Shown: positions 6,798 to 30,837 of the stretch, piece after piece
Layout of the letters: every line of letters starts with the position of its first letter
Numbering within the stretch: position 1 is the first letter of the stretch
NCBI GenBank assembly: GCA_038883655.1
Contig: JAVZLQ010000003.1
Span: 183,099-247,098, forward strand
DNA length: 64,000 nucleotides
Direction of reading: 5' to 3'
Source: Candidatus Bathyarchaeia archaeon
GTDB lineage: Archaea > Thermoproteota > Bathyarchaeia > Bathyarchaeales > Bathycorpusculaceae
The notes under the pieces: generated by a model
The model's input: only the letters and a program-made list of their open reading frames with translations
What the model was told of the DNA's origin: nothing
Database searches by the model: none
Translations under genes and position numbers: made by a program

Positions 6798-6853
6798 ATG
6801 TTCATAAAATGTATTAAATGTACATAAAGAAAGGGGGATGTTGACTTGTCAAC
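6798..6853. promoter_or_regulatory. ATGTNCAT-type motif array plus GTTGAC-TT-GTCAAC palindrome, upstream of the 646-aa gene and at the 3' end of the long GDH
   Basis: ATGTTCAT 6798-6805, ATGTATT 6809-6815, ATGTACAT 6818-6825, ATGTTGAC 6838-6845. Perfect 6+6 palindrome at 6840-6853. Start-to-start spacings are 11, 9 and 20 nt. The array abuts the TTTAAA box of the minus-strand gene. Confidence 0.35.
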
Positions 6854-8627: not shown

Positions 8628-8659
8628 CTTTTTCACACCTCTGAAGACTAACAAAAGTG

Positions 8660-11332: not shown

Positions 11333-12601
11333 ATGGATGAAGTGGAGAATATGAAAGAACAGCAAACAGCACTTGACGTGGCTCTGGAACAGTTAGAAAT
11401 AGCCGCTGAAAAACTGAACCTAGACCCTGGACTACACGAGATGCTGAAACATCCTAAAAGATCGCTAATTGTTTCCATCACAATAAAAATGGATGATGGA
11501 AACATACGAACATTCAAGGGATGCCGCGTTCAACACTGGGACGCACGCGGACCATTTAAAGGCGGCATACGCTACCACCCGAACGTAACGCTGGAGGAAG
11601 TAACAGCACTTGCCATGTGGATGACCTGGAAATGCGCAGTCGTAGACATTCCATATGGAGGCGCGAAGGGCGGGATATGTTGTAACCCGAAGGAAATGTC
11701 AAAAACTGAGCTTGAAAGACTTACAAGAAGATACACGAGCTTAATTCTTGACTATATCGGACCCTATCGTGATGTACCAGCGCCAGACGTGTATACAGAC
11801 GCACAAACAATGGCGTGGATAATGGACACATACAGCCAATTTAAAGGTTACAGCGTACCAGAATGCGTCACTGGAAAACCAATAAGCGTAGGTGGTTCTG
11901 AGGGAAGAGAAGAAGCCACTTCAAGGGGGGTCGTAATCTGCGCAAGGGAAGCGGCAAAACGTTTAGGCTTAAGATTCAAGGGCGCAACAGTTGCGGTTCA
12001 AGGCTACGGAAACGTCGGGTGGAACGCAGCGAAAATCGCACATGACATGGGATGCAAAATCATTGCGGTTAGCGATTCCGCTGGAGGAATCTATTGTCCA
12101 GACGGTTTAAACCCACGCAAAGTTTACGAACATAAGGCAAAAACTGGCTCAGTAATTAACTATCCAAAATGTAAGAACATATCAAACGAGGAACTGCTTG
12201 AAACAAAATGTGATATCTTAATTCCAGCAGCGCTTGAAAATCAAATAACAAAAGCCAACGCAAACAAGGTAAAAGCAAAAATAATAGTTGAAGGCGCAAA
12301 TGGACCCACAACCCCAGACGCAGACAAAATACTTCAAGAAAAAGGAGTCTTCCTAATCCCAGACATATTGGCAAACGCTGGCGGCGTAACAGCAAGCTAT
12401 TTCGAGTGGGTTCAAAATCTAACAAGAGAACACTGGACACTAGAAGAAGTGAACAGAAAACTCGAAAACATCATGGTGAAGGCATTCAATGACGTTTACA
12501 ACCTAGTGGAAAAAGAAAAAGAGAGCATGCGCACAGCAGCGTTAATGCTCGGCGTCGGAAGAGTAAGCGATGCGATAAAAACGTTAGGGCTATGGCCATA
12601 A
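11333..12601 (+). CDS. gdhA: Glutamate dehydrogenase (canonical length)
   Basis: 422 aa with GPFKGGIRYHP, PYGGAKGGICCNP and GATVAVQGYGNVG. By eye it is about two-thirds identical to the catalytic core of the long GDH. Confidence 0.92.
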   Translation: MDEVENMKEQQTALDVALEQLEIAAEKLNLDPGLHEMLKHPKRSLIVSITIKMDDGNIRTFKGCRVQHWDARGPFKGGIRYHPNVTLEEVTALAMWMTWKCAVVDIPYGGAKGGICCNPKEMSKTELERLTRRYTSLILDYIGPYRDVPAPDVYTDAQTMAWIMDTYSQFKGYSVPECVTGKPISVGGSEGREEATSRGVVICAREAAKRLGLRFKGATVAVQGYGNVGWNAAKIAHDMGCKIIAVSDSAGGIYCPDGLNPRKVYEHKAKTGSVINYPKCKNISNEELLETKCDILIPAALENQITKANANKVKAKIIVEGANGPTTPDADKILQEKGVFLIPDILANAGGVTASYFEWVQNLTREHWTLEEVNRKLENIMVKAFNDVYNLVEKEKESMRTAALMLGVGRVSDAIKTLGLWP

Positions 12602-12739: not shown

Positions 12740-13315
12740 ATGCAAGAAAAATCTTTGCCGAACATTAAAACCTTAGATTTCGAATTTGAAAATCTACCAG
12801 TAAAGGTCATTGCAAACAGGAATTGCCCCGAAATCAAGCTTGTTGGGCTGAATGTTGGACCTTTCGAAGAAGGAAACGTGTATGAAGCCCCGTTTTGGGT
12901 TGCAAAGGAACTGGAAAAGGCGGGAATTGTCCGCTTTCGTGAAGAAGAACTTTTGGATTCAAGAAGGATTTACAAGATTCAGTGGATGGAACGTGTCCAA
13001 ACGCCAAGCCAAATATCGAAGCTTCCAGAGAATTTTTACCCAAAACTGCGCAGGTATTTAGTGGAGCTAAAGAAGGTCTCAGCAAAATCTCCAGAAAAGA
13101 TGAGGGAGTACGAAAAAAGTATGCAAGTGGTACGCGACATGATTAATGCGCGTCTAAAAAAGATTGTTGCGCTGGCAACTGCAAATTTTGGACAAACTGA
13201 GCAGATTTTGAAGAACCTCACATTCGAGGAAAGGCTAATTTATGAACGTTTGCGCAAACTTATTCACGGTTGGAAAGCCAAAATACTGGAGCATGAAGAG
13301 GGGCTGGAAGAATGA
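12740..13315 (+). CDS. gins23: GINS subunit, Gins23-type
   Basis: 191 aa. A small beta-rich N-terminal part (GPFEEGNVYEAPFWVAKELEKAGIVRF) precedes a helical C-terminal part. Its stop overlaps the MCM start (13312-13315). Gins23 upstream of mcm is the arrangement reported for Sulfolobus. Confidence 0.6.
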   Translation: MQEKSLPNIKTLDFEFENLPVKVIANRNCPEIKLVGLNVGPFEEGNVYEAPFWVAKELEKAGIVRFREEELLDSRRIYKIQWMERVQTPSQISKLPENFYPKLRRYLVELKKVSAKSPEKMREYEKSMQVVRDMINARLKKIVALATANFGQTEQILKNLTFEERLIYERLRKLIHGWKAKILEHEEGLEE

Positions 13316-15360
13316 CTGGAGAGTTAGAAGTTATAAATCCTCAAGAGCAGTTCCAAGAATTCTTTAAAACAGAAAAGTACAGACAAAAAATTGCGCAGTT
13401 GGCTGTTGCAGGCAAAACATCACTAATAGTAGATTTTGAAGACCTCCTAATCTTCGACAACAAACTTGCAGAAAAACTACTTGAAAAACCAGACGAGTAC
13501 TTACAATATGCTAATAACGCGGCTTATTCGCAACTTGAAAGTGAAGATCCAGAATACGCCGAAAGGCTCGTAAGCAAACGGGAAACATTAACGGTCAGAA
13601 TCGCTAAGCTGTTAGAAGCAACGCCGCTAAGAAAACTTGGTTCAGACCACATTGGAAAACTTGTGATGATAGAGGGCATCGTAGTACGCTCAACACCAGT
13701 ACGCCCAATGGTTATACGGGCAGCATTCAAATGCAGAAGATGTGGAGAACTATCATTCGAGGATCAAACAGGACAATTCCTAAAAGCACCATTCAAATGC
13801 AGAAACTCAGAATGCGGAGCAAAGGGTCCATTCGACTTCATTCAAGAAGAATCTGCATTCATAGACTCACAAGAACTACGCGTCCAAGAAAGACCAGAAG
13901 ACCTTCCACCAGGTCAGCTTCCAAGAACCTTGCACATTAAGCTTGTCGGGGCAGAAATAGTTGATGTTGCAAGACCTGGAGACCACGTTTCCATCGTTGG
14001 CATAGTTCGTGTTGTTGCTCCCTCACTCCCAAGAGTTGGAAAGCTTCGCACTTTCAGACTTCATTTGGATGCAAATTCTATAGAAGTTTTAGGTAAAGAG
14101 CCTGAAACGGCGCTTCCATCACCAGAAGAAGAGGAAAAAATCTTGGAGCTGGCAAAGGATCCATGGATACATAGGAAGATAATAAATTCAATTGCACCTT
14201 CAATCTATGGTTACGACCACATAAAAGAAGCGATAATGTACCTTCTCTTCGGCGGAGTCCCAAAAAATCTTCCAGACATAACGATAAGGGGCGAAATAAA
14301 CGCCCTTCTAATAGGCGACCCAGGAACAGCCAAATCGCAACTGCTACAGTACGTGGCAAGAGTTGCACCTAGAGGATTATATACTTCTGGACGCGGAACA
14401 ACAGCAGCTGGCTTAACAGCAGCAGTAATACGCGAAAAAGGCGGAGGAATGAGTCTTGAGGCTGGTGCTTTGGTTTTGGCTGATAAGGGAATTGCGTGTA
14501 TTGACGAGATGGATAAGATGCGTCCAGAAGATAGAGTTGCAATTCACGAGGCAATGGAACAGCACACGGTTTCAGTTGCGAAAGGGGGTATTGTGGCAAC
14601 GCTAAACGCTAGAACAGCCATTCTTGCGGCTGCAAACCCCACTTTAGGAAGGTATGTGCCACATCGCACAGTTGCTGAAAACATCTCCTTGCCAGTTACG
14701 ATACTCTCCAGATTTGATTTAATCTTCATTTTGAGGGATGTGCCAAACAAAGAAATGGACAGCAAAATGTCAGAGCACATCCTAGAAATGCACAGAAAAG
14801 GTTCAAGTCCCACCGAACCACCAATACCATTAGATTTGCTACGCAAATACATAAGCTACGCTAGAGGCATAAAGCCAGTTTTAACTAAAGAAGCATTACA
14901 GCGCCTCAGAGACTTCTATTTAGCAATGCGCTCAACAACAGAATCAGAAAGCTCGCCAGTCGCAATTACAGCCCGCCAACTTGAATCACTTGTGCGTATA
15001 GCAGAGGCAAGAGCCCGAGCAGCATTAAGAAAGGAAGTTCTGGCTGAAGACGCAGAAGCTGCAATTGCGATAATGAAACGTTCGCTTGAAGAGGTTGGCA
15101 TAGACGTTTCTTCATTCAAGCTTGACATAGACATAATAATGACTGGAAAACCAAAAAGTGCGAGGGACAAGCTGCAAGTGATAATTTCGAAGCTTATGGA
15201 GATGGAGAAAGAAACAGGAATCGTTGAAAGGGAAGCGCTTATAGATGAATTGGAAAGTAAATACAAGATTCCGCGAGCTGAAGCAGAACGCCTCATAGGG
15301 CAGTTGTTGCGAGAAGGAACAATATACGAGCCTAGAGAAGGTTATCTAAAGAAAACGTAG
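13312..15360 (+). CDS. mcm: MCM replicative helicase
   Basis: Zn motif CRRCG...CRNSECG, Walker A GDPGTAKS, Walker B CIDEMDKM and arginine finger SRFDLIF. 682 aa, with no intein-sized insertion. Confidence 0.95.
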   Translation: MTGELEVINPQEQFQEFFKTEKYRQKIAQLAVAGKTSLIVDFEDLLIFDNKLAEKLLEKPDEYLQYANNAAYSQLESEDPEYAERLVSKRETLTVRIAKLLEATPLRKLGSDHIGKLVMIEGIVVRSTPVRPMVIRAAFKCRRCGELSFEDQTGQFLKAPFKCRNSECGAKGPFDFIQEESAFIDSQELRVQERPEDLPPGQLPRTLHIKLVGAEIVDVARPGDHVSIVGIVRVVAPSLPRVGKLRTFRLHLDANSIEVLGKEPETALPSPEEEEKILELAKDPWIHRKIINSIAPSIYGYDHIKEAIMYLLFGGVPKNLPDITIRGEINALLIGDPGTAKSQLLQYVARVAPRGLYTSGRGTTAAGLTAAVIREKGGGMSLEAGALVLADKGIACIDEMDKMRPEDRVAIHEAMEQHTVSVAKGGIVATLNARTAILAAANPTLGRYVPHRTVAENISLPVTILSRFDLIFILRDVPNKEMDSKMSEHILEMHRKGSSPTEPPIPLDLLRKYISYARGIKPVLTKEALQRLRDFYLAMRSTTESESSPVAITARQLESLVRIAEARARAALRKEVLAEDAEAAIAIMKRSLEEVGIDVSSFKLDIDIIMTGKPKSARDKLQVIISKLMEMEKETGIVEREALIDELESKYKIPRAEAERLIGQLLREGTIYEPREGYLKKT

Positions 15361-20067: not shown

Positions 20068-21276
20068 TTATGTTACGACCTCCGCCCTATTTTTGCAGAT
20101 AAGCAAAACAGCTGCTGCCGTCGGTAACTCAACAATCTGATTTTTATATGGTCCAAAAGTTTCCTCGCCAATTCTAAACTTTGGCGCATCATAAACCTTT
20201 ACGCCGACAGAGCCGCCCTTGAAGGCTACAGCCATTTTAAACGGGTCAAAATCGTCGATTGCTGAAACTGGAAACTCCACCTTCTTTAAGCCCGTCTTAC
20301 CATTCAAGGTGTCAGCCAACCTAATAAGCCGATGCGTATCCGTCGTCACAACAGTGTCGATACTTACGGATGTCAACTTCACAATATGCCTAATAACCTT
20401 CGCCCAGGTTTGAGGGCCAACACCCCTAACATAGCCCAACGTTCCTGTTCTTTGAAAGTTTTTCAGAATTAAACTTTTATTGCGCATTATCGCGCTTACG
20501 AAGCGTCTTTCAAGCTCCACTTTCAAAAGGTCTTCTTCATTAGCACTTGCAATAAAGTCTTCTATGCCCGTTGCCAGTCGCTTAGGCCAACCAAAGCTAC
20601 GTATAAATTTACGCGAAGACCTCTCCGCCAGTATACTTTCAATGTTTAGGCCCAAGGCTGTAACATAATCAACAATCTCCTTTCGCTCCATTGCATCAAG
20701 CGTTTTAACAGCGTCACTTTCAACGTGAACGTGGTAACCTCTATGTCCAGAAAAGAACGTGTAAATCTCACTTTCTGAAAAGCCAAAATCTTGCTCCAAC
20801 ATCTCCAAAAGCTTAATCGTCTCCTTTTTCGCAGAATCCAAACATTCCTCGCAAGGCCAAGTGTTTACATCAAATTTTTCACTTCCACATATGGGACATC
20901 TTTCTGGAGTAACCCCCTTACCCACGAAACCGCAGTTGCCACATTTCCACTCATCATGAACCTTGTCACACGGCGTTGGTACGTGATCAGCATCTATATC
21001 AAAAATCAAATCCGCGCCAAGCCAACCCTTCATCGCCATATCTGCTTCGGGGTTCCTATAGTAAGCGCATGAAAAGTACGCGTCTTTTGGGGCGAATTCC
21101 CTAAAAAAACGTGTTAGCTCCTCCACGTTTTGGAAGCTTTTGTGGCGGAGCATCTGTCCCTCAAATGATAAGAAGCCGAATTCGCGCTGTTCGATTTTGG
21201 GAACAGAATAGTTTTGGAAAGTATTCTTGCTGTAATATTCTTGGAATATGTACTGCACAAAGTTAATTGACTTCAA
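20068..21276 (-). CDS. priS: DNA primase small (catalytic) subunit PriS
   Basis: Catalytic DLIFDIDADH, Zn knuckle CGNCG...CPICG and SGHRGYHVHV motif. 402 aa. Confidence 0.9.
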   Translation of the reverse strand: MKSINFVQYIFQEYYSKNTFQNYSVPKIEQREFGFLSFEGQMLRHKSFQNVEELTRFFREFAPKDAYFSCAYYRNPEADMAMKGWLGADLIFDIDADHVPTPCDKVHDEWKCGNCGFVGKGVTPERCPICGSEKFDVNTWPCEECLDSAKKETIKLLEMLEQDFGFSESEIYTFFSGHRGYHVHVESDAVKTLDAMERKEIVDYVTALGLNIESILAERSSRKFIRSFGWPKRLATGIEDFIASANEEDLLKVELERRFVSAIMRNKSLILKNFQRTGTLGYVRGVGPQTWAKVIRHIVKLTSVSIDTVVTTDTHRLIRLADTLNGKTGLKKVEFPVSAIDDFDPFKMAVAFKGGSVGVKVYDAPKFRIGEETFGPYKNQIVELPTAAAVLLICKNRAEVVT

Positions 21277-21309: not shown

Positions 21310-22527
21310 TTAAACCTTCTTTTTCAGTGTTGTGAAACATATGTTATTCTTGATTTTGCTGCCGATGGCAAAAAGCGCAGAGTGTAGTTTGGTAAGACCT
21401 TTTTTGAACTTTTCCACAAGCATAAATCTTTCAATGCAAATGATTAACAATATATAGAAAAGCATCCACGTTAAGAAGTATAACTCGCCATACGTATCAT
21501 GAAAAGTTAGTGCCGCTTGGCTTCCACTATTAAGTCCTATTATTAGGATGGATGCCACCCGCAAAACATTTACGAAGTATGTTCCAAAAAATCCACAAAT
21601 GAAATATACAGCCTTTCTAAAACTCGAAAATTCTGAACGCTTGAAAAACACGAAAATTATTAGCACATAAAGAATTAAACTGTGAACACCAGAACAAGGC
21701 CAGTCCACAGTCGCACTATAACTAGCACCACCATAACGCACAGTCAAAAGAGGAAGCTTATAACCGGGTCTTGCTGGGTATGGGAAACTCAACACAACAG
21801 TGTAGCCTAGTATGTGGAGTAAAGCGGCTGATAAGGCTGTTGTTGGAAAAGTAATAAGCAGATGCACGGATAACTCCGATGGATAAAGTGTATTAATCAT
21901 ATATGCAGCAGTGATAACACCTAGCAGTGAAATTGAAATGGAAAACGTTTTCAATCCCAGCAGTCCATACGCAAAAATCACAGCTAACGTAAAGGATAAC
22001 CATAAAACAAGGTATTCGATGGACAATGGCCAGTGAAACGTTAAAAGGCTTTCTCGATCTACAGGCTCATTGACTCCCAAGTATTGACCAAGATCAAGAA
22101 TCACTTTAGTGGCACCCGGAATGGCGTTTACAAAAATGATGTACATCGTCGGTATCAGCAAACAAAAAATTCCTATTGCTAAGCGTTTAGTTGGTTTTTT
22201 ACAGAGAATTTGATCTCGGCTAGTTATGAATTCTATAAAGAACAGCCATACAAAAAACAAATAAAACATACGTCCTTTCCACGTTTCTTCAAAGACGAAC
22301 CTTGATGGAACAAAATTTGGCCAAGTTTTCACGTTAAAATATTGGAAACTTTCAATATCAAGGTAATCTATGACAAGCAACAGGGCTACTGGAAGCACTA
22401 GTAACAACAAAAAAACTGTATGAAATGAATATTTCCTCAAATTACTGAAAATTGTATTTTTGAATACTGCTTTCAAATTCGCTAGCCTCAGCGAGTTTAA
22501 TATTTTTAAGGGTATAAAAGCATTCAT
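21310..22527 (-). CDS. Archaeosortase/exosortase-family polytopic membrane protein
   Basis: Multi-TM protein carrying the family's Cys-Arg-His signature in order: VDWPCSGVHSL, then FVNVLRVASIL, then TFHDTYGE. The ATG overlaps the upstream gene's stop (ATGA at 22524-22527). Confidence 0.55.
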   Translation of the reverse strand: MNAFIPLKILNSLRLANLKAVFKNTIFSNLRKYSFHTVFLLLLVLPVALLLVIDYLDIESFQYFNVKTWPNFVPSRFVFEETWKGRMFYLFFVWLFFIEFITSRDQILCKKPTKRLAIGIFCLLIPTMYIIFVNAIPGATKVILDLGQYLGVNEPVDRESLLTFHWPLSIEYLVLWLSFTLAVIFAYGLLGLKTFSISISLLGVITAAYMINTLYPSELSVHLLITFPTTALSAALLHILGYTVVLSFPYPARPGYKLPLLTVRYGGASYSATVDWPCSGVHSLILYVLIIFVFFKRSEFSSFRKAVYFICGFFGTYFVNVLRVASILIIGLNSGSQAALTFHDTYGELYFLTWMLFYILLIICIERFMLVEKFKKGLTKLHSALFAIGSKIKNNICFTTLKKKV

Positions 22528-24281
22528 GACGTGTTAACCGCTTTTTTAAAAATGAGTAAGATGACTTTGATCAAACATAGGTTTCTAAGAGTTACCGATA
22601 GGAATTTGAATGCTGCCATTAAGATTGGGCGATAAAAAGAATCATAGCGAAATCTCATTTTGTCTAAAACGCTTGGTGGAAAAGGCAGGAAAAATTTTTC
22701 AGTCTTTATCAATGTGAACTTTTCCTTTTGCGCTGCTTTTTTAAATTCTGTAACATTCGGTTCAGAGATGTGTTCTGGATACCTAAAACCAAGCGCGTTT
22801 TTTATACGCTCATCAGGAAAACTTACAAAAAGCCATTTTTTAGTTATTCGTAACAATTCGTTAAAACCTATGTTTGGATTTATGGTGTGCTCAAGAACTT
22901 CGCTACAAATCGTGACCTCTGCGATATCTTGTTTAAAGGGCAGATAATTGACGTCGCACACGATTCGCTCAATGCTTGATGCTTTTTTTAAGGACTCCTT
23001 ATCTATGTCGCAACCAACATAATACTCTACATCAAAACCTTTTTCATACAAGTACTGGTTAAATGCGCCCAAACCACATCCAACGTCTGTTAAAACTGAA
23101 ATTTTTTTCCCAACAAACTTTGCCAGCAAGGACTGCAGTTTTTCATACCGTGCTCTATAACACAACTTTGCATCATACGTTTCTGGTCTATAATCTGGAA
23201 CTGTTTCCGTTTTTATCAAAGGTGCAAAAAATTTCCTCAGTTTGAGTTTAGGACCATTTAGAAGCGCTAGCACGAAGGCCCCAACAAATATTAGAAATGT
23301 AAAACCTAAAACCAAAACCATGTATGTTTGTGTTGGTTGGAATTTTTTGAAGATATACAGTTTACAGTTAACCGTATATTCATCGAAGAAATCCGGCTCT
23401 ATCACAGTTTTCTCGCTTCCATTTTGTATCGTGATTTTTCCAATGCCAACATTTGCATATGCTTCTTCTTCATATTTCCATTGCATATCATCCAAACCAA
23501 TTGTTATAGCAATAAATGTGATTTGTTTGCTAAAATCCCTAAACAATGTGGTGCCGAACAACGTTTGGTTATACAAATCTATGTTAAAATTTATCGTTTT
23601 GCCTAAAATGATTTCCTCTTTTGGCGCTATCAGATATGGAAGCCAGTTTCTGTCTCTTGTGATCAGAAGTAGGATCACATGGTTAATCTTACCGCTTAAA
23701 AGCTTGACAGATCCCTCAATTCTAAAGTTTTGTTCAGCAATTTGTTGAAAAGGGCATGCCAGCATAACTTGTTGAAATCTTGAACTTTGACCTTTTGAAG
23801 CTTGAACATGCACGCCAATATACTTGCTTCCGTAAAGATCTACATAATTGAAAAGCGTATAGTTTGCTTCTCCCTCAAACACCTTGACCGCATATGAAGA
23901 CGCTGGATCAATGAACCGCGTTTGGAGGGTAATGTTTGATGAACCCTCATTTGCGACAAGGCAGCATTGCTGTTGGAAAAGAATCCAATTTTCAAAGTCA
24001 AATGGTCGTCCTTCAATTTCATATGGAATTTGTTTAAGAGTTGGACATCCCTCCAATTCCACACGCGATGTTGTGTTAAATATTAGATAGACCTTGTCGG
24101 ATGCTGCGAATGGTGGAACTTCGATATTAACTGGAGAATTTCTAATAACGTTGAACGTGTAATTTTTGGTATTTACGTCTGTTTTTATAAAATCTAATAA
24201 AGTATAAACGATAAGAAAACCGAAAACTGCCGTTAACACAAGAATTGTGTAAAATATTAACTTTAGTTTTGTGCTTGTCAT
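22524..24281 (-). CDS. Bitopic membrane protein: ~320-aa sequon-rich extracytoplasmic domain + cytoplasmic class I SAM methyltransferase
   Basis: TM1 is LIFYTILVLTAVFGFLIVY and TM2 is MVLVLGFTFLIFVGAFVLALL. MTase motif I is VLTDVGCGLGAF, with CDID, then ICSEVLEHT. The preferred start is ATG 24281 (MTSTK), which overlaps the upstream stop as ATGA. The ORF-track start at 24401 adds 40 aa that overlap the upstream gene. Confidence 0.6.
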   Translation of the reverse strand: MTSTKLKLIFYTILVLTAVFGFLIVYTLLDFIKTDVNTKNYTFNVIRNSPVNIEVPPFAASDKVYLIFNTTSRVELEGCPTLKQIPYEIEGRPFDFENWILFQQQCCLVANEGSSNITLQTRFIDPASSYAVKVFEGEANYTLFNYVDLYGSKYIGVHVQASKGQSSRFQQVMLACPFQQIAEQNFRIEGSVKLLSGKINHVILLLITRDRNWLPYLIAPKEEIILGKTINFNIDLYNQTLFGTTLFRDFSKQITFIAITIGLDDMQWKYEEEAYANVGIGKITIQNGSEKTVIEPDFFDEYTVNCKLYIFKKFQPTQTYMVLVLGFTFLIFVGAFVLALLNGPKLKLRKFFAPLIKTETVPDYRPETYDAKLCYRARYEKLQSLLAKFVGKKISVLTDVGCGLGAFNQYLYEKGFDVEYYVGCDIDKESLKKASSIERIVCDVNYLPFKQDIAEVTICSEVLEHTINPNIGFNELLRITKKWLFVSFPDERIKNALGFRYPEHISEPNVTEFKKAAQKEKFTLIKTEKFFLPFPPSVLDKMRFRYDSFYRPILMAAFKFLSVTLRNLCLIKVILLIFKKAVNTS

Positions 24282-25471
24282 GTTTTTACTCTCCTTGTGA
24301 GAGATGCTGTTAGGACAAAGATGTAGAGAATAAATCTTAACATAATGGTTATAGAAAGCGGGAGCATAACACCGATCTGCAGAAAAAGTGGACAGTACCA
24401 TACTAGTGAATGAATTGTATTAACGATTTCAAAGGCTATTAAAGTCATTATTTGTTTATGCTTATTCCAGTTCATTGTGGCAATTGCCAACAGACAAATT
24501 TGAGGAATGTGCACTAGGGGATTGTAAAATGTGGAGAACGCAAGATATGAGAAGATTGCTAATGAGATCAAAGCTAAGGATTCTTTCTTGTCCTTGGCTT
24601 TTCTAGCAAGAAAGCTGATGCCAATAAGAGATGCGAATTGTAAGCTAAGGGATATGTAGGATAGTATGGGAAATTTCCATTCATATCTAAAGTGGTCATA
24701 GTACGTTGGGGCGTACAACGTTGCAAACTGCCAAGAATAGAGTGTGCCATCAAAAGTAGGGTGCATAAAACCTGTATGCCCAAAATATCCATCGATCAGA
24801 GCAAAAATCGATTCGGATGGCCCTCTTAAAAGGTGACTTGTTGCAACAGAAATGTACATTAAAGGGTCTGCTATGAGGTATGGTAATGATATCAACAGCA
24901 TTGTCAAAGCAAAAGAATACATAAGCACCACTTTTCTCTTTAAACCCTTGTAATAAATGATTAGTGGCGGTAAAAGTGCCACTGGATAAAATTTTGAAAG
25001 TGTACCGCATCCGCAAAAAAATCCAGCAAGCCAAGGATTCTCAAAAAAGTACAACGCCAGAAGTGCGAACGTTATTGCAATGGTATCTCCATGAGCAAGG
25101 ATAAGGGTGAAGTATATGACGGAGGGCATCAGAGTGATGATTAACGGTATGCTTAAGGTTCGCTCACGACTTAATTTAGCCACGTTCACGTACATTGTAA
25201 ATATCATAAGAAAGAATGTAAGTGCATTAAAGAATAATAAAATGAAGTTGTAAGCGTAAGAATTAGAAAAAGTGATGTATAGAAAGTAATATGGTAGTCT
25301 AGCTATTGGGGGATAACCCGAACGAAAATCAATAAAAGGTAAGAGGTTGTTTCTCTGTAGAAAGACATCTTCAAAATTAGTTTGAGGGAAAAAACCTAAA
25401 AAAAGCAGTATAACAATTATAGCTGCAAAGGCTGATAATTCCAAGCCGATAAACCGCCGTAATAGAGACAA
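24278..25471 (-). CDS. Polytopic membrane protein, GT-C-fold glycosyltransferase-like (DUF2029/PMT-like)
   Basis: About 10-12 predicted TM segments. An early loop (DFRSGYPPIARLPYYFLY) resembles the first-loop region of GT-C/DUF2029 proteins. TTG start. The family call is from general resemblance only. Confidence 0.4.
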   Translation of the reverse strand: MSLLRRFIGLELSAFAAIIVILLFLGFFPQTNFEDVFLQRNNLLPFIDFRSGYPPIARLPYYFLYITFSNSYAYNFILLFFNALTFFLMIFTMYVNVAKLSRERTLSIPLIITLMPSVIYFTLILAHGDTIAITFALLALYFFENPWLAGFFCGCGTLSKFYPVALLPPLIIYYKGLKRKVVLMYSFALTMLLISLPYLIADPLMYISVATSHLLRGPSESIFALIDGYFGHTGFMHPTFDGTLYSWQFATLYAPTYYDHFRYEWKFPILSYISLSLQFASLIGISFLARKAKDKKESLALISLAIFSYLAFSTFYNPLVHIPQICLLAIATMNWNKHKQIMTLIAFEIVNTIHSLVWYCPLFLQIGVMLPLSITIMLRFILYIFVLTASLTRRVKT

Positions 25472-25609
25472 CCGCGATCACCATGCTTAGATTTTAACTA
25501 AATTTCTTCGGCGTGCTTTTAAAACTATCTTACTGGAAACGCTTGAAAAATTTAATTTTAACAAATTATTATCTCTATAATTCCGATAAATCTTTGAGCG
25601 AGATGGGTG

Positions 25610-26704
25610 ATGAAGAAAAGGAGCGCGGATTATTCGTTTCTGATGCTATCTTTTATATTAGCATGTTTTCCTATGCTTTTTCTTGAAACTGTTTTCTTGG
25701 CATACATCGCCGTAAATAAACGCTATGTTGAGGTTGGAATGGGTTATAATGTTTGGTTTACTATGGATTGGGAAAATGACACTAATTGCATTGACAAACC
25801 TGTATTAGGCTATTATAAGTCTAATAACGTCGTCGTTTTACTTCAACACATAAAATGGTTTGATGAATTAGGCATAGATTTCGTAATTGTGAATTGGCAA
25901 GGAATATATTATAATCCTCCTTGCAACGAAAACGCACAATTATTTTTCCAAGTTCTAGCGAATTATACTGGAAAAAATAAAATTAAAGCGTGTATTTGCG
26001 TCCAAATAACTGGCAACTGGACCGATGAAACAGAAATCTACGATTATGTTTGGGACAATTTCGTAACAAAGTATTATCCAGTTTACCATCACTACCAAGG
26101 CAAACCACTAATACTGTTTTTCTCGGAATGCAGCACAATCTACAACAGCACAGATACACTCAAAAAGGACTCAAGGTTTACGGTCATATCAATGGGAGTT
26201 AAGAGTTACGATGACTGGTTATACAATGCCATTTACTACCCAGAAAGAGCAGATGAAAATCGCTGGTGCGCTGTGAAAAACTGGGAAGGAGACAGCCCGA
26301 GATGTCGCCATATCCCCGTAACGCCAAGATTCGATGAGCGTCACATTGGATATATTTCAGATAGACCTCCATCTATTGGTTATTATGTTGATCCAGAATT
26401 AACATGGTTATATGATGCAGAATGGGAAAAAGCGCTAAAGGCTGTCAAAGAAAACCAAGTTGATGTTATAACAATTTCTTGGTGGAACGAATTTGCAGAG
26501 CGAAGCCAAATAGAACCATGTTATGACGCCACAGCAAAAAGTGCAGACCCATATTTTATTTTTAATAAAACAAAATATTACATAAGCAGGTTGAGAGAAG
26601 AAACTTTGATGCTGGATTATTGGCATTTCAAAGTTTGCGTGGCGATCCTTACACCAACTATCTTTTGGGCGGTACTCATGAGGAAGCGTGTACAGATTAC
26701 TTAG
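25610..26704 (+). CDS. Secreted or anchored glycoside-hydrolase-like protein (GH99-like TIM barrel?)
   Basis: N-terminal TM/signal and a C-terminal TM. VLGYYKSNNVVVLLQHIKWFDELGIDFVIVNW and VITISWWNEFAERSQIEP resemble GH99-type motifs (Y.S.d..v...H......GI....vSWw and SFNEWhEGTqIE). Confidence 0.35.
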   Translation: MKKRSADYSFLMLSFILACFPMLFLETVFLAYIAVNKRYVEVGMGYNVWFTMDWENDTNCIDKPVLGYYKSNNVVVLLQHIKWFDELGIDFVIVNWQGIYYNPPCNENAQLFFQVLANYTGKNKIKACICVQITGNWTDETEIYDYVWDNFVTKYYPVYHHYQGKPLILFFSECSTIYNSTDTLKKDSRFTVISMGVKSYDDWLYNAIYYPERADENRWCAVKNWEGDSPRCRHIPVTPRFDERHIGYISDRPPSIGYYVDPELTWLYDAEWEKALKAVKENQVDVITISWWNEFAERSQIEPCYDATAKSADPYFIFNKTKYYISRLREETLMLDYWHFKVCVAILTPTIFWAVLMRKRVQIT

Positions 26705-26723: not shown

Positions 26724-27749
26724 TTAGTCGAATGTTTTGGCAATAGAATTGAACAAATCTATGTGCGCTTGAACGTAGTGATCCACATTATACTTCCTAG
26801 CATATTCATTTGCTCGCTCATATGTTTGCTTAGAAAAATGCTGCCACAGATTGATATCGTTCTTTAGCGAACGTATTATTTCGACTAGTTGCTCGCTTGA
26901 TCCTTTGGCAAAAGAGAACCCGCCGAGAAGATTAGTGTTCTCTCTAACACCAATGAGGCTAGAGGCTATTGGCACACATCCGTACAATGCGCCTTCAACC
27001 AAAACGAGACCATACGCCTCCGTTGTGTTCAACGATGGAAGGCACACAACATGCGCTTGTTCATATAATCTCTGTAATCTATAATCATCCACATTCTCTT
27101 CAAACATCACATTTCTCAAATGTAAGCGTTCAACCATGTGCTTAAATTTAGCCTTGAGTGGGCCTTCCCCAACCAGAACAAAATTGACATCCCTTAACTC
27201 ATAAGCAGCCTTAATAAGTATGTTTATTCCTTTGAATGCACGAAACTGACCAACAAAAATAACAGTAAATTGCTTTTCATGTCGATCATGCAAATCATAT
27301 TCTTTAGGCAAACTTAACGTAACAGGAGGACGGACAACTTTAACATTTGCCGCCGAAAACAAGTTGGCATATTCTATAGAATGGACAACAATTGCTCGCG
27401 CCCTTTTACAAGCTAAAAATCTATGAAAGCGCGTATACAACTGCGATATACGCTCAGACATCCAGCAGATTTCAGCGTGATGCGTGTATACTATGGCATT
27501 GCCCTTAGTAAGCAAACACACATCTGAAAGGAAAGGAGTTGGACCATGTATATGAACAACATCATAACCCTCATGTTTCTTGAAAGGAATAAAGTTGGGC
27601 TTGAACTCTCCGACCCTGCGTTTCGGAGATTCAACGTCAACATGCCAACCACGCTTACGTAAACCATCAATAAGCACGTCTACAAGCCGGGCAATTCCAC
27701 CCTTATATGGGGGAACATCCGTTGCTATTTCTAGAACATTAAGTGTCAT
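26724..27749 (-). CDS. Glycosyltransferase family 4 (GT-B)
   Basis: N-terminus PPYKGGIARLV, C-terminal EAYGLVLVEGALYGCVPIAS (E-x7-E-like). ATG 27749 or TTG 27755, either one within 4 nt of the radical-SAM stop. Confidence 0.8.
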   Translation of the reverse strand: MTLNVLEIATDVPPYKGGIARLVDVLIDGLRKRGWHVDVESPKRRVGEFKPNFIPFKKHEGYDVVHIHGPTPFLSDVCLLTKGNAIVYTHHAEICWMSERISQLYTRFHRFLACKRARAIVVHSIEYANLFSAANVKVVRPPVTLSLPKEYDLHDRHEKQFTVIFVGQFRAFKGINILIKAAYELRDVNFVLVGEGPLKAKFKHMVERLHLRNVMFEENVDDYRLQRLYEQAHVVCLPSLNTTEAYGLVLVEGALYGCVPIASSLIGVRENTNLLGGFSFAKGSSEQLVEIIRSLKNDINLWQHFSKQTYERANEYARKYNVDHYVQAHIDLFNSIAKTFD

Positions 27750-27751
27750 TT

Positions 27752-28825
27752 TCAAGGCCTAATCAAACTTGTCGGGTGAACCAAGATTGAAGGATATGCC
27801 TCACAGGGAGTCCAACAAAGCCTACATCCCTTAATCTCATTCCTTAATTTCACAGCAGCCGCAGACCTCAACAAAGCATGTATATCGTAGTTAAAATCAC
27901 GGAGGTTACCGATTTTTTTGTCCAAAATGATACACGGATACACATCTCCATAAGGATTCAAAAACAACGAATTATATAACGCCACACAACTCAGTGGCAC
28001 ATGTTCCTCTAACATGTACTTCTGCGCGAGTTTTAGATAAGTTTTTGAAACCAACGCTAACGGAGACTTACTACGCACAGAACGCAATCCGGCGGAAAGA
28101 TCCTCTAAAGCTTTGTCTTTAAATGTGTTACCACTCACTTGTTGATTTGAATCTAAATTATCATATAGATTTCCAGTGTGGTAGATGGTCACCGTTACAT
28201 TTTCCAGAAGCCAACGCAAATCTTTTCTTGCTAATTCGTCAAATAACAATGTTAGAGAACCAGCATTAAATGGAGTAGCAGTATATTCGAACCCTACAGA
28301 TAAATTGTTAAATTCCTTACTGAGCGCATGCAACATTTCAATTGTTTTAACAGCTTTACTAAAGGCTCCATTAATTCCACGCATGTTATCATGCACTTCT
28401 GGAGGCCCATCTAAGCTTACGTTTATAAAGGTAAGCGGCACATCAGCATCAAGCACTTTATAGACGTTTTTTTCTATTAAACACGTATCAAGACCGTTGG
28501 TTGTCAAATTAAGCATTTTGGGATTACAGTTTTCTTTAATTAAATTTGCTATGTCTCCGAGATCATTTCTGAGAAATGGTTCTCCTCCCGTGATGCTGAT
28601 CCACGCTAGTTTTTGAAATTTCTGGAATATAAGGGCTATTTCCTCTACCTTTAGTTCCTTGCTTACTAGCCATGGTTTATCAACATAACGTCTCCACGCG
28701 TTGCACATTTTGCAATGAGAGTTACATTTATAGGTAACAGCGAAATTTAATTTAAAAATCTCGCCCCTTAAATATGAAACAAGTATTTCTGTAAATGAAC
28801 GAAATGCTTCAGTCAGTCTAATCAT
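27752..28825 (-). CDS. Radical SAM protein with C-terminal SPASM/twitch-like Cys domain
   Basis: CNSHCKMC (Cx3Cx2C) near the N-terminus, plus GGEPFL. C-terminal Cys set: CVALYNSLFLNPYGDVYPCIILD...GCRLCWTPCEAY. Confidence 0.8.
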   Translation of the reverse strand: MIRLTEAFRSFTEILVSYLRGEIFKLNFAVTYKCNSHCKMCNAWRRYVDKPWLVSKELKVEEIALIFQKFQKLAWISITGGEPFLRNDLGDIANLIKENCNPKMLNLTTNGLDTCLIEKNVYKVLDADVPLTFINVSLDGPPEVHDNMRGINGAFSKAVKTIEMLHALSKEFNNLSVGFEYTATPFNAGSLTLLFDELARKDLRWLLENVTVTIYHTGNLYDNLDSNQQVSGNTFKDKALEDLSAGLRSVRSKSPLALVSKTYLKLAQKYMLEEHVPLSCVALYNSLFLNPYGDVYPCIILDKKIGNLRDFNYDIHALLRSAAAVKLRNEIKGCRLCWTPCEAYPSILVHPTSLIRP

Positions 28826-28915: not shown

Positions 28916-29734
28916 CTAAAGCATAGTCCTATGAAGAACAACTTTTGCAAGTATGTAAGAGATGAATTGTTTAATTTCGTTGAACGCCAGTTTTGATTTG
29001 CCTCTCTTACGGTTTACAAATATTATTGGAACCTCACCTAATCTAAATCCCCTAATGTTCGCCTGTCTTACCGTTTCTATCTGTATCTCGTAGGTCTGGC
29101 TGTGCAGATCATCGATTATGCCCTTGACAAGCTTTGTAGAGTAGCACCGAAAACCACTTGTGTAGTCGTAGATCCCAGCCTTTACAACAATTGCCGCAAC
29201 GAAATTAGCAACCTTACTTATCACTCGGCGGATCATACTCCAGTCTACAGTCCCACCGCCGCTACGATACCGGCTGCCAATAACCAGATCATAACCCCTA
29301 TGAAAAGCTGCAACCAAACGCGGGATATCATTTGGATTATGAGAATAATCCGCATCCATAGTTATAATGCACTTGGGAGCGTTAGGCAGAGACAGAAATA
29401 TCCGAAAACCATCGGTTATAGCCGTTCCAAGCCCCAGCTTCTGCGGTCTCACATATAACAAAACGTTTTCATACTTCTCTTGTAAATCTCTAACAATGTT
29501 GGCTGTTCCATCTGGGCTTGAGTCGTCTATGACTAAAATGGAGACATTAAGGTTTAAACTTTCAATTTCTTCGATTAGGTTTTTAATATTAGGGGCTTCA
29601 CAGTACGTCGGAAGGACAACACCCACATCAGAGGCTACACTCAAATCTCCTTCAACATTCTCTATTGAATTCACGTTAACTGAGTAACACTCCTTAACGT
29701 TCATTTTATGTCTCATCGCCAGAATGGTCTTCAT
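28916..29734 (-). CDS. Dolichyl/polyprenyl-phosphate mannose (hexose) synthase-like GT2
   Basis: VVLPTYCEAPNI, LVIDDSSPDGT, MDADYSH and GSRY are typical of DPM1/GtrB-like GT2. The start may be one of the downstream Met codons. Confidence 0.8.
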   Translation of the reverse strand: MKTILAMRHKMNVKECYSVNVNSIENVEGDLSVASDVGVVLPTYCEAPNIKNLIEEIESLNLNVSILVIDDSSPDGTANIVRDLQEKYENVLLYVRPQKLGLGTAITDGFRIFLSLPNAPKCIITMDADYSHNPNDIPRLVAAFHRGYDLVIGSRYRSGGGTVDWSMIRRVISKVANFVAAIVVKAGIYDYTSGFRCYSTKLVKGIIDDLHSQTYEIQIETVRQANIRGFRLGEVPIIFVNRKRGKSKLAFNEIKQFISYILAKVVLHRTML

Positions 29735-29790: not shown

Positions 29791-30837
29791 TTAGCACAGC
29801 CGCAGTTTCCTTTTGTAATAACCCAGTGGGTGGCGTATTGTTTTGCAAATCTCGTCAGGGTTTACGCATACTCCATGTGTTTGTAGCGTTTCACATTTTG
29901 GCGGGGTGTAGCGTGTTCTCGAGCCTCTTTCGCCGGCAATATGTTCAACTTGGTATTGAGTCATTCTTTCGTTGAAGTCGGAGAAGTTTCTGAATAAGTC
30001 GATTACGTTTTCGGTTGGCATGCCGACGTTTATCAGGAAGGATGTTAGAGTGAACCTTCCTACATGCGATAAGTGGCGCCCAACAGTGACGGATTCGTAG
30101 AGGGATTTAATGCATGGAGGAAAAGCTTCATTAACAATTGTTTTTGGTAGACCTTCGATTTCTGCTTCGCCTATTTTTTCGATGGATAATTTTCTTATTT
30201 TCTCGGCTATTTCAACAATTTCTATTGGAAACTTTAGTTTATCCTTAACCTCTAGTCGTTTCTCAACATATCTGCGAACCTCTTCGCTTAACAGCCTCGC
30301 GGTTTCGCCCCGCGTAATAAAGACACTTCCCTTAGATAACAAGCGGTTTACGAGTTTCCATTTTTTGTCCCGCAAGTGAATGGTGTTTCTTAAGTAATCG
30401 GCGAAGTTTAAACTAAATTCATATGGTGCAAAGGCAATGTTGTCGATTGGAGATATTTTCCACCCGAAATTTTGAGCAACAGCAAGAAGCTTTTCTCTTG
30501 ATTCGACTTTGAGGTCATTAAAAACCTTTTTTGCTTCTGCAAGGGCGTATCTTTTTTTAATGAAGGAGTTTTCTGTTGCTATTGCCAGAATTATTGCCGT
30601 TGGGAAGGATAAGATTTCTATATCTTCGTTTCGCGAGTCTCCACTAACAATAGCATATAAAACCGCTTCTTCGAGTCTCCCTTGCGCACGTTTGAGAACT
30701 GCATTGAACTGGGGGTCAACTAGTTCTTCAACTTTAAAATCTAGTTCTTTCACGTATTTGCCTGCTTCTTTTAAGAAGGGGTATTTTGCCAAATCATTTT
30801 TTGTGAATTTTGTTGTGGATTGCATTTGTTTGTTCAC
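29791..30837 (-). CDS. priL: DNA primase large subunit PriL
   Basis: FPPCIKSLYESV..GRHLSHVGRFTLTSFLINVG and C-terminal Fe-S cysteines (PPKCETLQTHGVCVNPDEIC). Confidence 0.88.
   Translation of the reverse strand: MNKQMQSTTKFTKNDLAKYPFLKEAGKYVKELDFKVEELVDPQFNAVLKRAQGRLEEAVLYAIVSGDSRNEDIEILSFPTAIILAIATENSFIKKRYALAEAKKVFNDLKVESREKLLAVAQNFGWKISPIDNIAFAPYEFSLNFADYLRNTIHLRDKKWKLVNRLLSKGSVFITRGETARLLSEEVRRYVEKRLEVKDKLKFPIEIVEIAEKIRKLSIEKIGEAEIEGLPKTIVNEAFPPCIKSLYESVTVGRHLSHVGRFTLTSFLINVGMPTENVIDLFRNFSDFNERMTQYQVEHIAGERGSRTRYTPPKCETLQTHGVCVNPDEICKTIRHPLGYYKRKLRLC

Follow-up and report, generated by a model that had tools for sequence, protein, structure and literature searches.

A predicted GT-C glycosyltransferase, an ectodomain-methyltransferase fusion and an exosortase/archaeosortase-family protein encoded in a variable glycosylation island of Bathyarchaeia

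The DNA analysed here, called the window, is the whole stretch of 64,000 nucleotides from contig JAVZLQ010000003.1 (positions 183,099 to 247,098) of the Candidatus Bathyarchaeia archaeon assembly GCA_038883655.1. We studied three adjacent genes in it, which encode a GT-C-type membrane glycosyltransferase (gene 1), an ectodomain fused to an S-adenosylmethionine (SAM)-dependent methyltransferase (gene 2, the middle gene) and a protein of the exosortase/archaeosortase family, referred to as the sortase (gene 3). An earlier note on this DNA had described the trio as one operon and had proposed that it constitutes a dedicated maturation module for C-terminally sorted surface proteins. Related loci fetched for comparison are designated by L-numbers. 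Their genes were called with a simple longest-ORF (open reading frame) picker and, since the related contigs are often short, a gene called absent is absent from the contig. The features of the trio, including transmembrane (TM) helices and the evidence from AlphaFold2 (AF2), are the following:

24278..25471, minus strand: gene 1, GT-C membrane glycosyltransferase (GT87/PIG-M-like by fold), 397 aa; AF2 model, Foldseek and homologs
23247..24281, minus strand: N-terminal half of gene 2 (aa 1-345), with a first TM helix (TM1), an all-beta ectodomain of ~275 aa, the motif LYxFxKF(H/Q)PT, a second TM helix (TM2) and a short basic stretch
22524..23246, minus strand: C-terminal half of gene 2 (aa 346-585), class-I SAM-dependent methyltransferase, predicted to be cytoplasmic; Pfam, alignment and Foldseek
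21310..22527, minus strand: gene 3, exosortase/archaeosortase-family protein of a Bathyarchaeia clade, 405 aa; TIGR04178 and PF09721 passed
21499..21696, minus strand: catalytic region of the sortase, with Cys278 at 21694-21696, Arg323 at 21559-21561 and His343 at 21499-21501
25491..25497, minus strand: TATA-box-like TTAAAAT, read by eye, ~23 nt upstream of the start of gene 1

The three minus-strand ORFs were confirmed at 24278-25471 (397 aa), 22524-24281 (585 aa) and 21310-22527 (405 aa). Both junctions consist of an ATGA (24281-24278 and 22527-22524) in which the TGA stop shares three bases with the following ATG, exactly as had been described. The ATG of the middle gene (24281) lies within a longer ORF, which extends to 24401. 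This start is supported by an AAGGAG located 9 nt upstream (24296-24291) and by the resulting 585-aa product, which is identical to an NCBI protein of a Bathyarchaeia contig. Gene 1 starts with a TTG at 25471, in agreement with the conserved MSLLRRF N-termini of its homologs, while the NCBI call is 9 codons shorter. The TTAAAAT upstream of this codon is, judging by its sequence, a possible promoter of a leaderless operon transcript. Among the 43 same-strand neighbouring pairs of the window, four share an exact 4-nt overlap, eight overlap to any extent and 12 lie at most 10 nt apart. Given this base rate, the ATGA junctions fit an operon and are not unusual for the genome. Co-transcription of the three genes here is very likely, in line with the single operon of the earlier note.

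The ordered Cys, Arg and His signature that had been noticed in the last gene is present as WPCSGVHSL (aa 276), NVLRV (aa 320) and FHDTYGE (aa 342), and Cys278, Arg323 and His343 were invariant in an alignment of 26 family members (32-95% identity). The same 26 relatives also share an invariant, family-specific N-terminal TWKGR at aa 82, and a crude Kyte-Doolittle hydropathy scan found at least seven hydrophobic segments in the sortase. A search with archaeosortase hidden Markov models (HMMs), which the earlier note had proposed as a check, gave a divided answer: the protein passed the superfamily models, TIGR04178 with 52.9 bits (cut-off 23) and Pfam PF09721 (Exosortase_EpsH) with 35.1 bits (cut-off 25.7), but failed every curated subfamily cut-off. 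Specifically, the nearest curated subfamily was the thaumarchaeosortase TIGR04297, with 58.8 bits against a cut-off of 250 and a match restricted to residues 269-378, and other Bathyarchaeia sortase clades stayed below the same cut-off with 54-73 bits. The ArtC model gave 33.1 bits (cut-off 100), ArtF at most 22 bits on relatives (cut-off 150) and 8TM_EpsH 24.9 bits (cut-off 105.6), and the ArtA, ArtB, ArtD and ArtE models did not match the sortase at E ≤ 1. With more than 120 homolog clusters and its triad kept, gene 3 is, on sequence criteria, a catalytically intact member of a Bathyarchaeia-specific exosortase/archaeosortase clade. A second sortase paralog, 40% identical, was found in a sister genome (L046:5857-6876, in the same metagenome-assembled genome (MAG) as L001, JAWBOE01), where it adjoins cysE/cysK-like genes and lies three genes away from a PE[GS]-CTERM protein; this paralog suggests that the species probably has at least two sortases, possibly with different targets.

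The AF2 model of gene 1 (predicted local distance difference test (pLDDT) 79.9, predicted template-modelling score (pTM) 0.83) was compared with the PDB using Foldseek. Its ten best matches were all of the GT-C fold, with TM-scores of ~0.35-0.60, and the matches included GPI-MT-I (9wno, TM-score 0.60), ALG3, ALG6, PIG-U, ArnT, STT3, ALG9 and PimE. An acidic F-(D/E)-D-x-F located directly after TM1 was nearly invariant among 26 GT-C homologs and reads F-E34-D35-V-F in the window protein, and a GYPP was invariant in the homologs of gene 1. Gene 1 has 30 homolog clusters, and most of the homologs (32-77% identity) carry the GT87 family PF09594 in precomputed annotations. When PDB sequences were searched with profiles of the sortase and GT-C families, nothing was returned at E ≤ 10, and for the exosortase family no solved structure is available for comparison at the sequence level. 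On the strength of the structural model, gene 1 is predicted to be an enzyme of the GT-C transmembrane fold.

In the AF2 model of the middle protein, a helix (residues 2-34) is followed by the strands of the ectodomain (36-311) and by a second helix that corresponds to TM2 (318-341). The methyltransferase half scored 43.1 bits with Pfam Methyltransf_11 (cut-off 21.2) and passed three more models. Its motif I is VGCGLG (invariant VGCGxG), CSEVLEH and KNALGFRYPEHISEPN are also invariant, and Foldseek returned BioC, RebM, AtmM and similar small-molecule/sugar O-methyltransferases with E-values of 1e-9 to 1e-7. The protein identities given in the earlier note thus held for the GT-C fold, the SAM methyltransferase and the exosortase/archaeosortase family; its description of the middle protein as bitopic did not, since two clear TM helices flank the ectodomain and a hydrophobic C-terminal segment is present besides them. 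The ectodomain half is a stand-alone gene of ~340 aa in L084, L085, L087 and L088, and the methyltransferase is a separate gene of ~240 aa in L084, L085 and L088. The split genes of these last three loci match positions 8-341 and 352-582 of the middle protein with E-values of 1e-55 to 1e-72. An exhaustive search of 1.84 billion proteins yielded 13 representative clusters for the ectodomain, most of them stand-alone proteins of ~340 aa, while the whole middle protein has 14 homolog clusters. The ectodomain-methyltransferase fusion is, from these alignments, lineage-specific. Foldseek matches of the ectodomain were limited to low-TM jelly-roll proteins (birnavirus VP2) and were uninformative. 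A kinship between the ectodomain and the PGF-pre-PGF-type proteins described below (cluster c11) was rejected, as hmmsearch found nothing and hhalign gave a probability of 0.2%.

The architecture of the middle protein raises the question of whether it could itself be a substrate of the sortase, with an internal KF(H/Q)PT-TM2-basic signal being cut so that the ectodomain is released or lipid-anchored and separated from the methyltransferase. The order ectodomain, motif, TM helix, basic stretch and cytoplasmic domain would suit such a role, the stand-alone ectodomain proteins terminate exactly in the motif, a TM helix and a short basic tail, and the gene lies directly upstream of the sortase. 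There is also a described precedent for an internal sorting signal created by gene fusion, a Haloferax ArtA substrate fused to a downstream cytoplasmic domain (PMC6098224). However, a KFQP(S/T) motif is equally kept in the Thermosphaera locus (L084) and in L085, which have no sortase on the contig, it is degenerate in L087 and it does not resemble the PE[GS] signal associated with the sortase family. Moreover, the N-terminal TM helix would keep the ectodomain attached after cleavage. We regard this explanation as most improbable.

Seen from the GT-C/ectodomain pair, synteny was strongest at the junction between these two genes. They overlap or abut in L080, L081, L082, L083, L084, L085, L086, L087 and L088, and L065 carries a single 743-aa ORF (12854-15094, minus strand) with similarity to the GT-C profile (184 bits) as well as to the ectodomain profile (32 bits), i.e., a fusion. 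A gene for a cytoplasmic GT4 glycosyltransferase, also present in the window, is located directly upstream of the GT-C gene in nearly all related loci (L080, L083, L084, L085, L086, L087 and L088). Comparison of these sequences indicates that genes 1 and 2 are an obligate pair, and the conserved functional unit comprises GT4, GT-C and ectodomain partner, to which the methyltransferase may or may not be added. The two independent fusions, ectodomain with methyltransferase and GT-C with ectodomain in L065, argue that GT-C, ectodomain and methyltransferase form a complex.

The sortase was less tightly associated with this pair. Downstream of the pair, the sortase gene overlaps by 4 nt in the window and by 35 nt in L083 and is set off by a gap of 86-96 bp in L080/L082. 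In L086 and L088 it is encoded on the other strand, and it is absent from the contigs of four pairs (L081, L084 (Thermosphaera sp. JAXSQB010000084), L085 and L087). The trio or parts of it recurred next to the sortase in the related Bathyarchaeia L001, L002/L083, L080 and L082 and, rearranged, in L086, L088 and L065; the test of neighbourhood conservation proposed in the earlier note thus showed synteny in other genomes. Measured against the refuting conditions of that note (failure with all exosortase/archaeosortase HMMs, or absence of synteny elsewhere), its idea stands unrefuted. In L088, each of the seven island genes has an ortholog (28-58% identity) and the sortase is encoded on the other strand, which suggests that the unit and a sortase have long been housed together in the island bounded by the primase genes PriS and PriL, in changing arrangements. 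Two neighbouring genes were observed at loci that have the pair and no sortase. In the crenarchaeote-like L087 (447-9026), the GT4-GT87-ectodomain genes lie beside a 1156-aa SlaA-like S-layer gene, with neither methyltransferase nor sortase, a context that hints that the unit decorates the S-layer protein. In Thermosphaera, a gene for an Rce1-like/CPBP intramembrane protease (L084:6538-7017) is located 1 kb downstream of the split GT87-ectodomain-methyltransferase module. CPBP proteases include myxosortase (PMC11980579), and by analogy this one could be a C-terminal processing enzyme, or its presence could be a coincidence.

To view the locus from the side of the sortase, we used 79 species-level sortase loci, nearly all of which belong to Bathyarchaeia. 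By tblastn and profile searches, three loci have the gene 1/gene 2 unit, namely L001 (from the same species), L002 and L065; the other 76 lack it and have other GT-C families instead. The commonest neighbours were PriS/Gins51 (~25 of the 79 loci), GT2 glycosyltransferases (31/79) and PriL (16/79, at 4.5-8.9 kb from PriS). Unbiased neighbour clustering showed that the GT-C neighbours span the Pfam families PMT_2, DUF2079, PIG-M/GT87 and DUF6541, that the GT-C family beside the sortase differs between clades, and that GT2, GT4, epimerase genes and LPG_synthase_TM proteins are further neighbours. GT-C genes accounted for ~9% of genes within four positions of the sortase versus 0.5% at eight or more positions.

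These data bear directly on the dedicated maturation module, in which the GT-C and the methyltransferase would modify sortase substrates or their acceptor and would represent a new type of archaeosortase system. In its favour are the 4-nt overlaps here and the 35-nt overlap in L083, the persistence of the trio down to ~46-53% sortase identity (L002/L083, L080 and L082), the co-residence of unit and sortase in the island of L086, L088 and L065 despite rearrangement, and the general enrichment of GT-C genes beside this sortase family. Nevertheless, the unit occurs on contigs without a sortase and is missing from 76 of 79 sortase loci, and the GT-C/ectodomain junction is always kept, whereas the sortase varies in spacing and strand. 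Finally, the swapping of GT-C families from clade to clade is more in keeping with glycan diversity than with an invariable step of sorting. We therefore consider a dedicated module unlikely, and the claim made for it in the earlier note did not hold up well.

Two classes of secreted proteins near the sortases are candidate substrates. Cluster c3 comprises proteins of ~265 aa ending in (I/V)PE(G/S)(L/F)-TM-RKR. Such PE[GS]-TM-RKR proteins lie within five genes of the sortase in 23 of the 79 loci, and the share of PE[GS]-CTERM genes is 3-4.5% within seven positions of the sortase versus 0/222 farther out. Cluster c11 is a PGF-pre-PGF-domain family (TIGR04213, 40.2 bits, cut-off 28) with a C-terminal TM helix and basic tail and is, from its sequence features, a second candidate substrate class with a motif unlike PE[GS]. 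In 12 loci (L004, L009, L012, L013, L017, L021, L023-L025, L030, L039 and L041), a c11 protein of ~259 aa ending in PxPWW-TM-basic is encoded divergently from the sortase at position -1. In the window itself, a 637-aa surface protein with FG-GAP, Big_3_5 and PKD domains is encoded 20 kb from the sortase (119-2032, plus strand). Its tail, TTTPMFALGGLGLGIIALILAAIALLM-SSRKPK, consists of a P-x-F motif (PMF), a TM helix and basic residues and resembles PGF/PEF-type sorting signals; from this resemblance, it could be a substrate of the window sortase. The tails of the PE[GS], c11 and 637-aa proteins and of the GH99-like protein described below passed no curated CTERM sorting-domain model, the sole curated CTERM match of the scanned tails being a sub-threshold Loki-CTERM (17.8 bits, cut-off 19.9).

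The trio makes up the promoter-distal part of an 8.4-kb block (21.3-29.7 kb) that lies between PriS and PriL. The window is archaeal, encoding MCM, Gins51, PriS, PriL, PCNA, aIF2-alpha, L44e, RFC and PolD, and the DNA near-identical or related to it comes from Bathyarchaeia MAGs. The other features of the block and its boundaries are the following:

20068..21276, minus strand: PriS, primase small subunit (Pfam DNA_primase_S), island boundary and conserved downstream neighbour of the sortase
25607..26704, plus strand: GH99-like (endo-alpha-mannosidase-like) ecto-enzyme, divergently transcribed, with an N-terminal hydrophobic segment, a C-terminal TM helix and an RKR tail
26724..27755, minus strand: GT4 glycosyltransferase, cytoplasmic, nucleotide-sugar type (Pfam Glycos_transf_1/Glyco_transf_4)
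27752..28825, minus strand: radical-SAM/SPASM protein (Pfam Radical_SAM and SPASM), with a 4-nt overlap with the downstream GT4
28916..29734, minus strand: GT2, dolichyl-phosphate-mannose (Dol-P-Man) synthase-like (polyprenyl-phosphate hexose synthase-like), next to PriL
29791..30837, minus strand: PriL, primase large subunit (Pfam DNA_primase_lrg), the other island boundary

A variable glycosylation island between PriS and PriL was found in L014, L043, L045, L051, L052, L057, L059, L060, L063, L064, L065, L070, L080 and L088. Across Bathyarchaeia it measures 4.5-8.9 kb, with the GT2 usually on the PriL side and the sortase near PriS/Gins51, and for the sortase it is the location in this island that is conserved. 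The best solved relative of the window GT2 is the Pyrococcus Dol-P-Man synthase (PDB 5mlz, E 6.6e-29), its orthologs (56-67% identity) adjoin PriL in many Bathyarchaeia loci, and it is the probable supplier of the donor for the GT-C. The GH99-like protein matched PDB 4acy at E 3e-4 over two segments, its ortholog in L088 is annotated as PF16317, and orthologs adjoin the module in L001, L080, L082 and L088. In each of the three lineages examined (the window, L080:5860-6723 and L088:10056-11060), its C-terminus is a TM helix followed by a basic tail. Only a Trp is common to the region preceding the helix, and these tails may serve simply to anchor the protein in the membrane or may be recognised by a sortase. 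The radical-SAM/SPASM gene was found, among the related loci, only in L001 and is a lineage-specific extra of the island. Elsewhere in the window, two glutamate-dehydrogenase-family genes (6849-8654, minus strand, and 11333-12601, plus strand) are located within 5 kb, the first having an additional N-terminal region of ~200 aa without a Pfam match.

The variable content of the island could also mean that the three genes have no functional relation, the sortase being an ancestral neighbour of PriS beside which a horizontally acquired glycosylation cassette landed, with incidental co-transcription. This would agree with the G+C content, which dips to 0.36 at 22-26 kb versus 0.42-0.44 in the surrounding sequence, with the sortase-PriS-Gins51 adjacency being the most widespread context, and with the tight gene packing common in this genome. 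Scans of the window for tRNAs and Rfam families found nothing, and thus no integration hallmark for the low-GC island. Against an incidental neighbourhood, GT-C, GT2, GT4, PE[GS]-CTERM and PGF-pre-PGF genes are strongly concentrated within ~7 genes of the sortase compared with positions farther out in the same loci, and bacterial exosortases of exopolysaccharide (EPS) loci are well known to show such a pattern (PMC1569441). An absence of any relation seems to us quite unlikely.

Altogether, the trio is probably one allele of a variable envelope-biogenesis island and not a dedicated three-component sorting machine. The gene structure, the folds, the family placement, the fusion and the synteny statistics were observed directly; the activities proposed in the following are conditional. 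On the outer membrane face, gene 1 would probably use a dolichyl-phosphate sugar as the donor of the hexose that it transfers, most likely mannose. Gene 2 would be the obligate partner of gene 1, a beta-sandwich ectodomain held by two TM helices and fused in this lineage to a cytoplasmic methyltransferase. The latter is probably responsible for O-methylation of a sugar in the lipid-linked glycan prior to flipping, as proposed by likeness to AglP in Haloferax. The GT4, the Dol-P-hexose-synthase-like GT2 and the GH99-like ecto-enzyme would act in the same pathway as genes 1 and 2, and in the simplest reading these enzymes would assemble and trim a surface glycan that contains mannose and is O-methylated. 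By analogy, the sortase would cleave a C-terminal motif-TM-basic signal of secreted proteins by thioester transpeptidation, with the (I/V)PE(G/S)(L/F)-TM-RKR proteins and the PGF-pre-PGF-domain proteins as the best family-wide substrate candidates. It would be a separate, older and long-term resident of the island whichever GT-C is present, and all three genes would serve one broad process, the building of a glycosylated protein surface.

Several observations weigh against this interpretation. Gene 1 reached 18.2 bits with Pfam GT87 (PF09594; cut-off 25) and the GH99-like protein 29.3 bits with Pfam GH99 (cut-off 33), both short of the threshold. The specificities proposed for sugar and methylation draw on nothing closer than distant family resemblance. 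The PE[GS]-CTERM tail HMM had no match in the 64-kb window or in the module-bearing loci L080-L088. The unit is found together with a sortase in the island of three or more sortase subclades (the group of the window, L086 and L088) plus L065, which leaves some probability to a closer coupling of the two. In addition, all of the synteny comes from one class, the Bathyarchaeia, in which the PriS/PriL gene order is kept by descent, and the loci are therefore non-independent. The same enzymes would also allow a pathway similar to glycosylphosphatidylinositol (GPI) anchoring, in which the island builds a (methyl-mannosylated) glycolipid and the sortase, acting like the GPI transamidase, attaches C-terminally cleaved surface proteins to it instead of to a simple phospholipid headgroup. 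This idea, which draws on the GT-C relatives GPI-MT-I and PIG-U, the Dol-P-Man-synthase-like GT2, the flippase-like LPG_synthase_TM proteins and the analogy with a Cys transpeptidase, appears very unlikely.

Almost nothing is known about the cell envelope of the Bathyarchaeia, an abundant class that has not been cultured. Both the sortase clade and the candidate signal (I/V)PE(G/S)(L/F)-TM-RKR lie outside curated models, and the variable PriS-PriL glycosylation island resembles bacterial surface-glycan diversity loci. The GT-C/ectodomain/methyltransferase unit is rare and undescribed, though built of familiar parts in an operon of an ordinary cell-envelope kind, and its fusions argue for a trans-membrane complex that would couple cytoplasmic sugar methylation to outer-face glycosyl transfer. 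The idea of a three-gene maturation module is weaker than the operon alone suggests. These results extend the exosortase/archaeosortase picture to a further archaeal class and do not overturn the current understanding.

Among known systems, the thaumarchaeosortase and the PEFG-CTERM proteins of Nitrososphaeria are regarded in TIGRFAMs annotation as a cognate pair. TIGR04297 was the best curated subfamily for every Bathyarchaeia clade tested, with some members matching nearly the whole model. The order of Cys, Arg and His is the same, both hosts belong to TACK/Thermoproteota, and the candidate PE(G/S)(L/F) signal resembles the PEFG of the proteins known from Nitrosopumilus (PMC6593220). The Bathyarchaeia sortases differ in scoring 54-73 bits against the cut-off of 250 and in that the PE[GS] tails match no curated CTERM model. 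The sortase of the ArtA/PGF-CTERM system, known from Haloferax and methanogens, is a member of the same superfamily; this system shares the triad, the proposed thioester transpeptidation onto a membrane lipid and a tripartite C-terminal signal, and PGF-pre-PGF-domain proteins adjoin Bathyarchaeia sortases. In contrast to the artA-pssA-pssD synteny (PMC7157517), there was no match to the ArtA model at E ≤ 1 and no pssA/pssD in the neighbourhood, and the partners here are glycosylation genes.

The earlier note had taken partners other than PssA/PssD as a sign of a different maturation module. However, exosortase genes among glycosyltransferases are already the norm for bacterial EpsH, ~90% of whose homologs are located near EPS genes, including group-1 glycosyltransferases (PMC1569441), and such partners alone therefore do not make the system one of a new kind. 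Like the bacterial PEP-CTERM/exosortase system, the locus studied here has a sortase gene among glycosyltransferases, substrate genes scattered nearby (candidates in our case) and a sortase that passes Exosortase_EpsH. Unlike it, the host is an archaeon with a single membrane and without EPS export machinery, and the neighbours are a GT-C and a Dol-P-hexose synthase instead of Wzx, Wzy and chain-length genes. The GT87/PIG-M/ALG3 mannosyltransferases, such as PimE and GPI-MT-I, resemble gene 1 in the fold, in the acidic pair after TM1 and in the Dol-P-Man-synthase-like GT2 of the island, with an identity of 11-15%; for the obligate beta-sandwich ectodomain partner, no described counterpart was found. 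Finally, AglP of Haloferax volcanii is a SAM-dependent methyltransferase that acts in N-glycan assembly (PMC2913515). It is, like the C-terminal half of gene 2, a class-I SAM methyltransferase encoded in a glycosylation cluster. The cytoplasmic side is where AglP modifies a sugar of a lipid-linked glycan and where the gene 2 enzyme would do the same. AglP is soluble and stand-alone, whereas the enzyme encoded here is membrane-tethered through fusion to the GT-C partner, and the two are likened by type and not by orthology.

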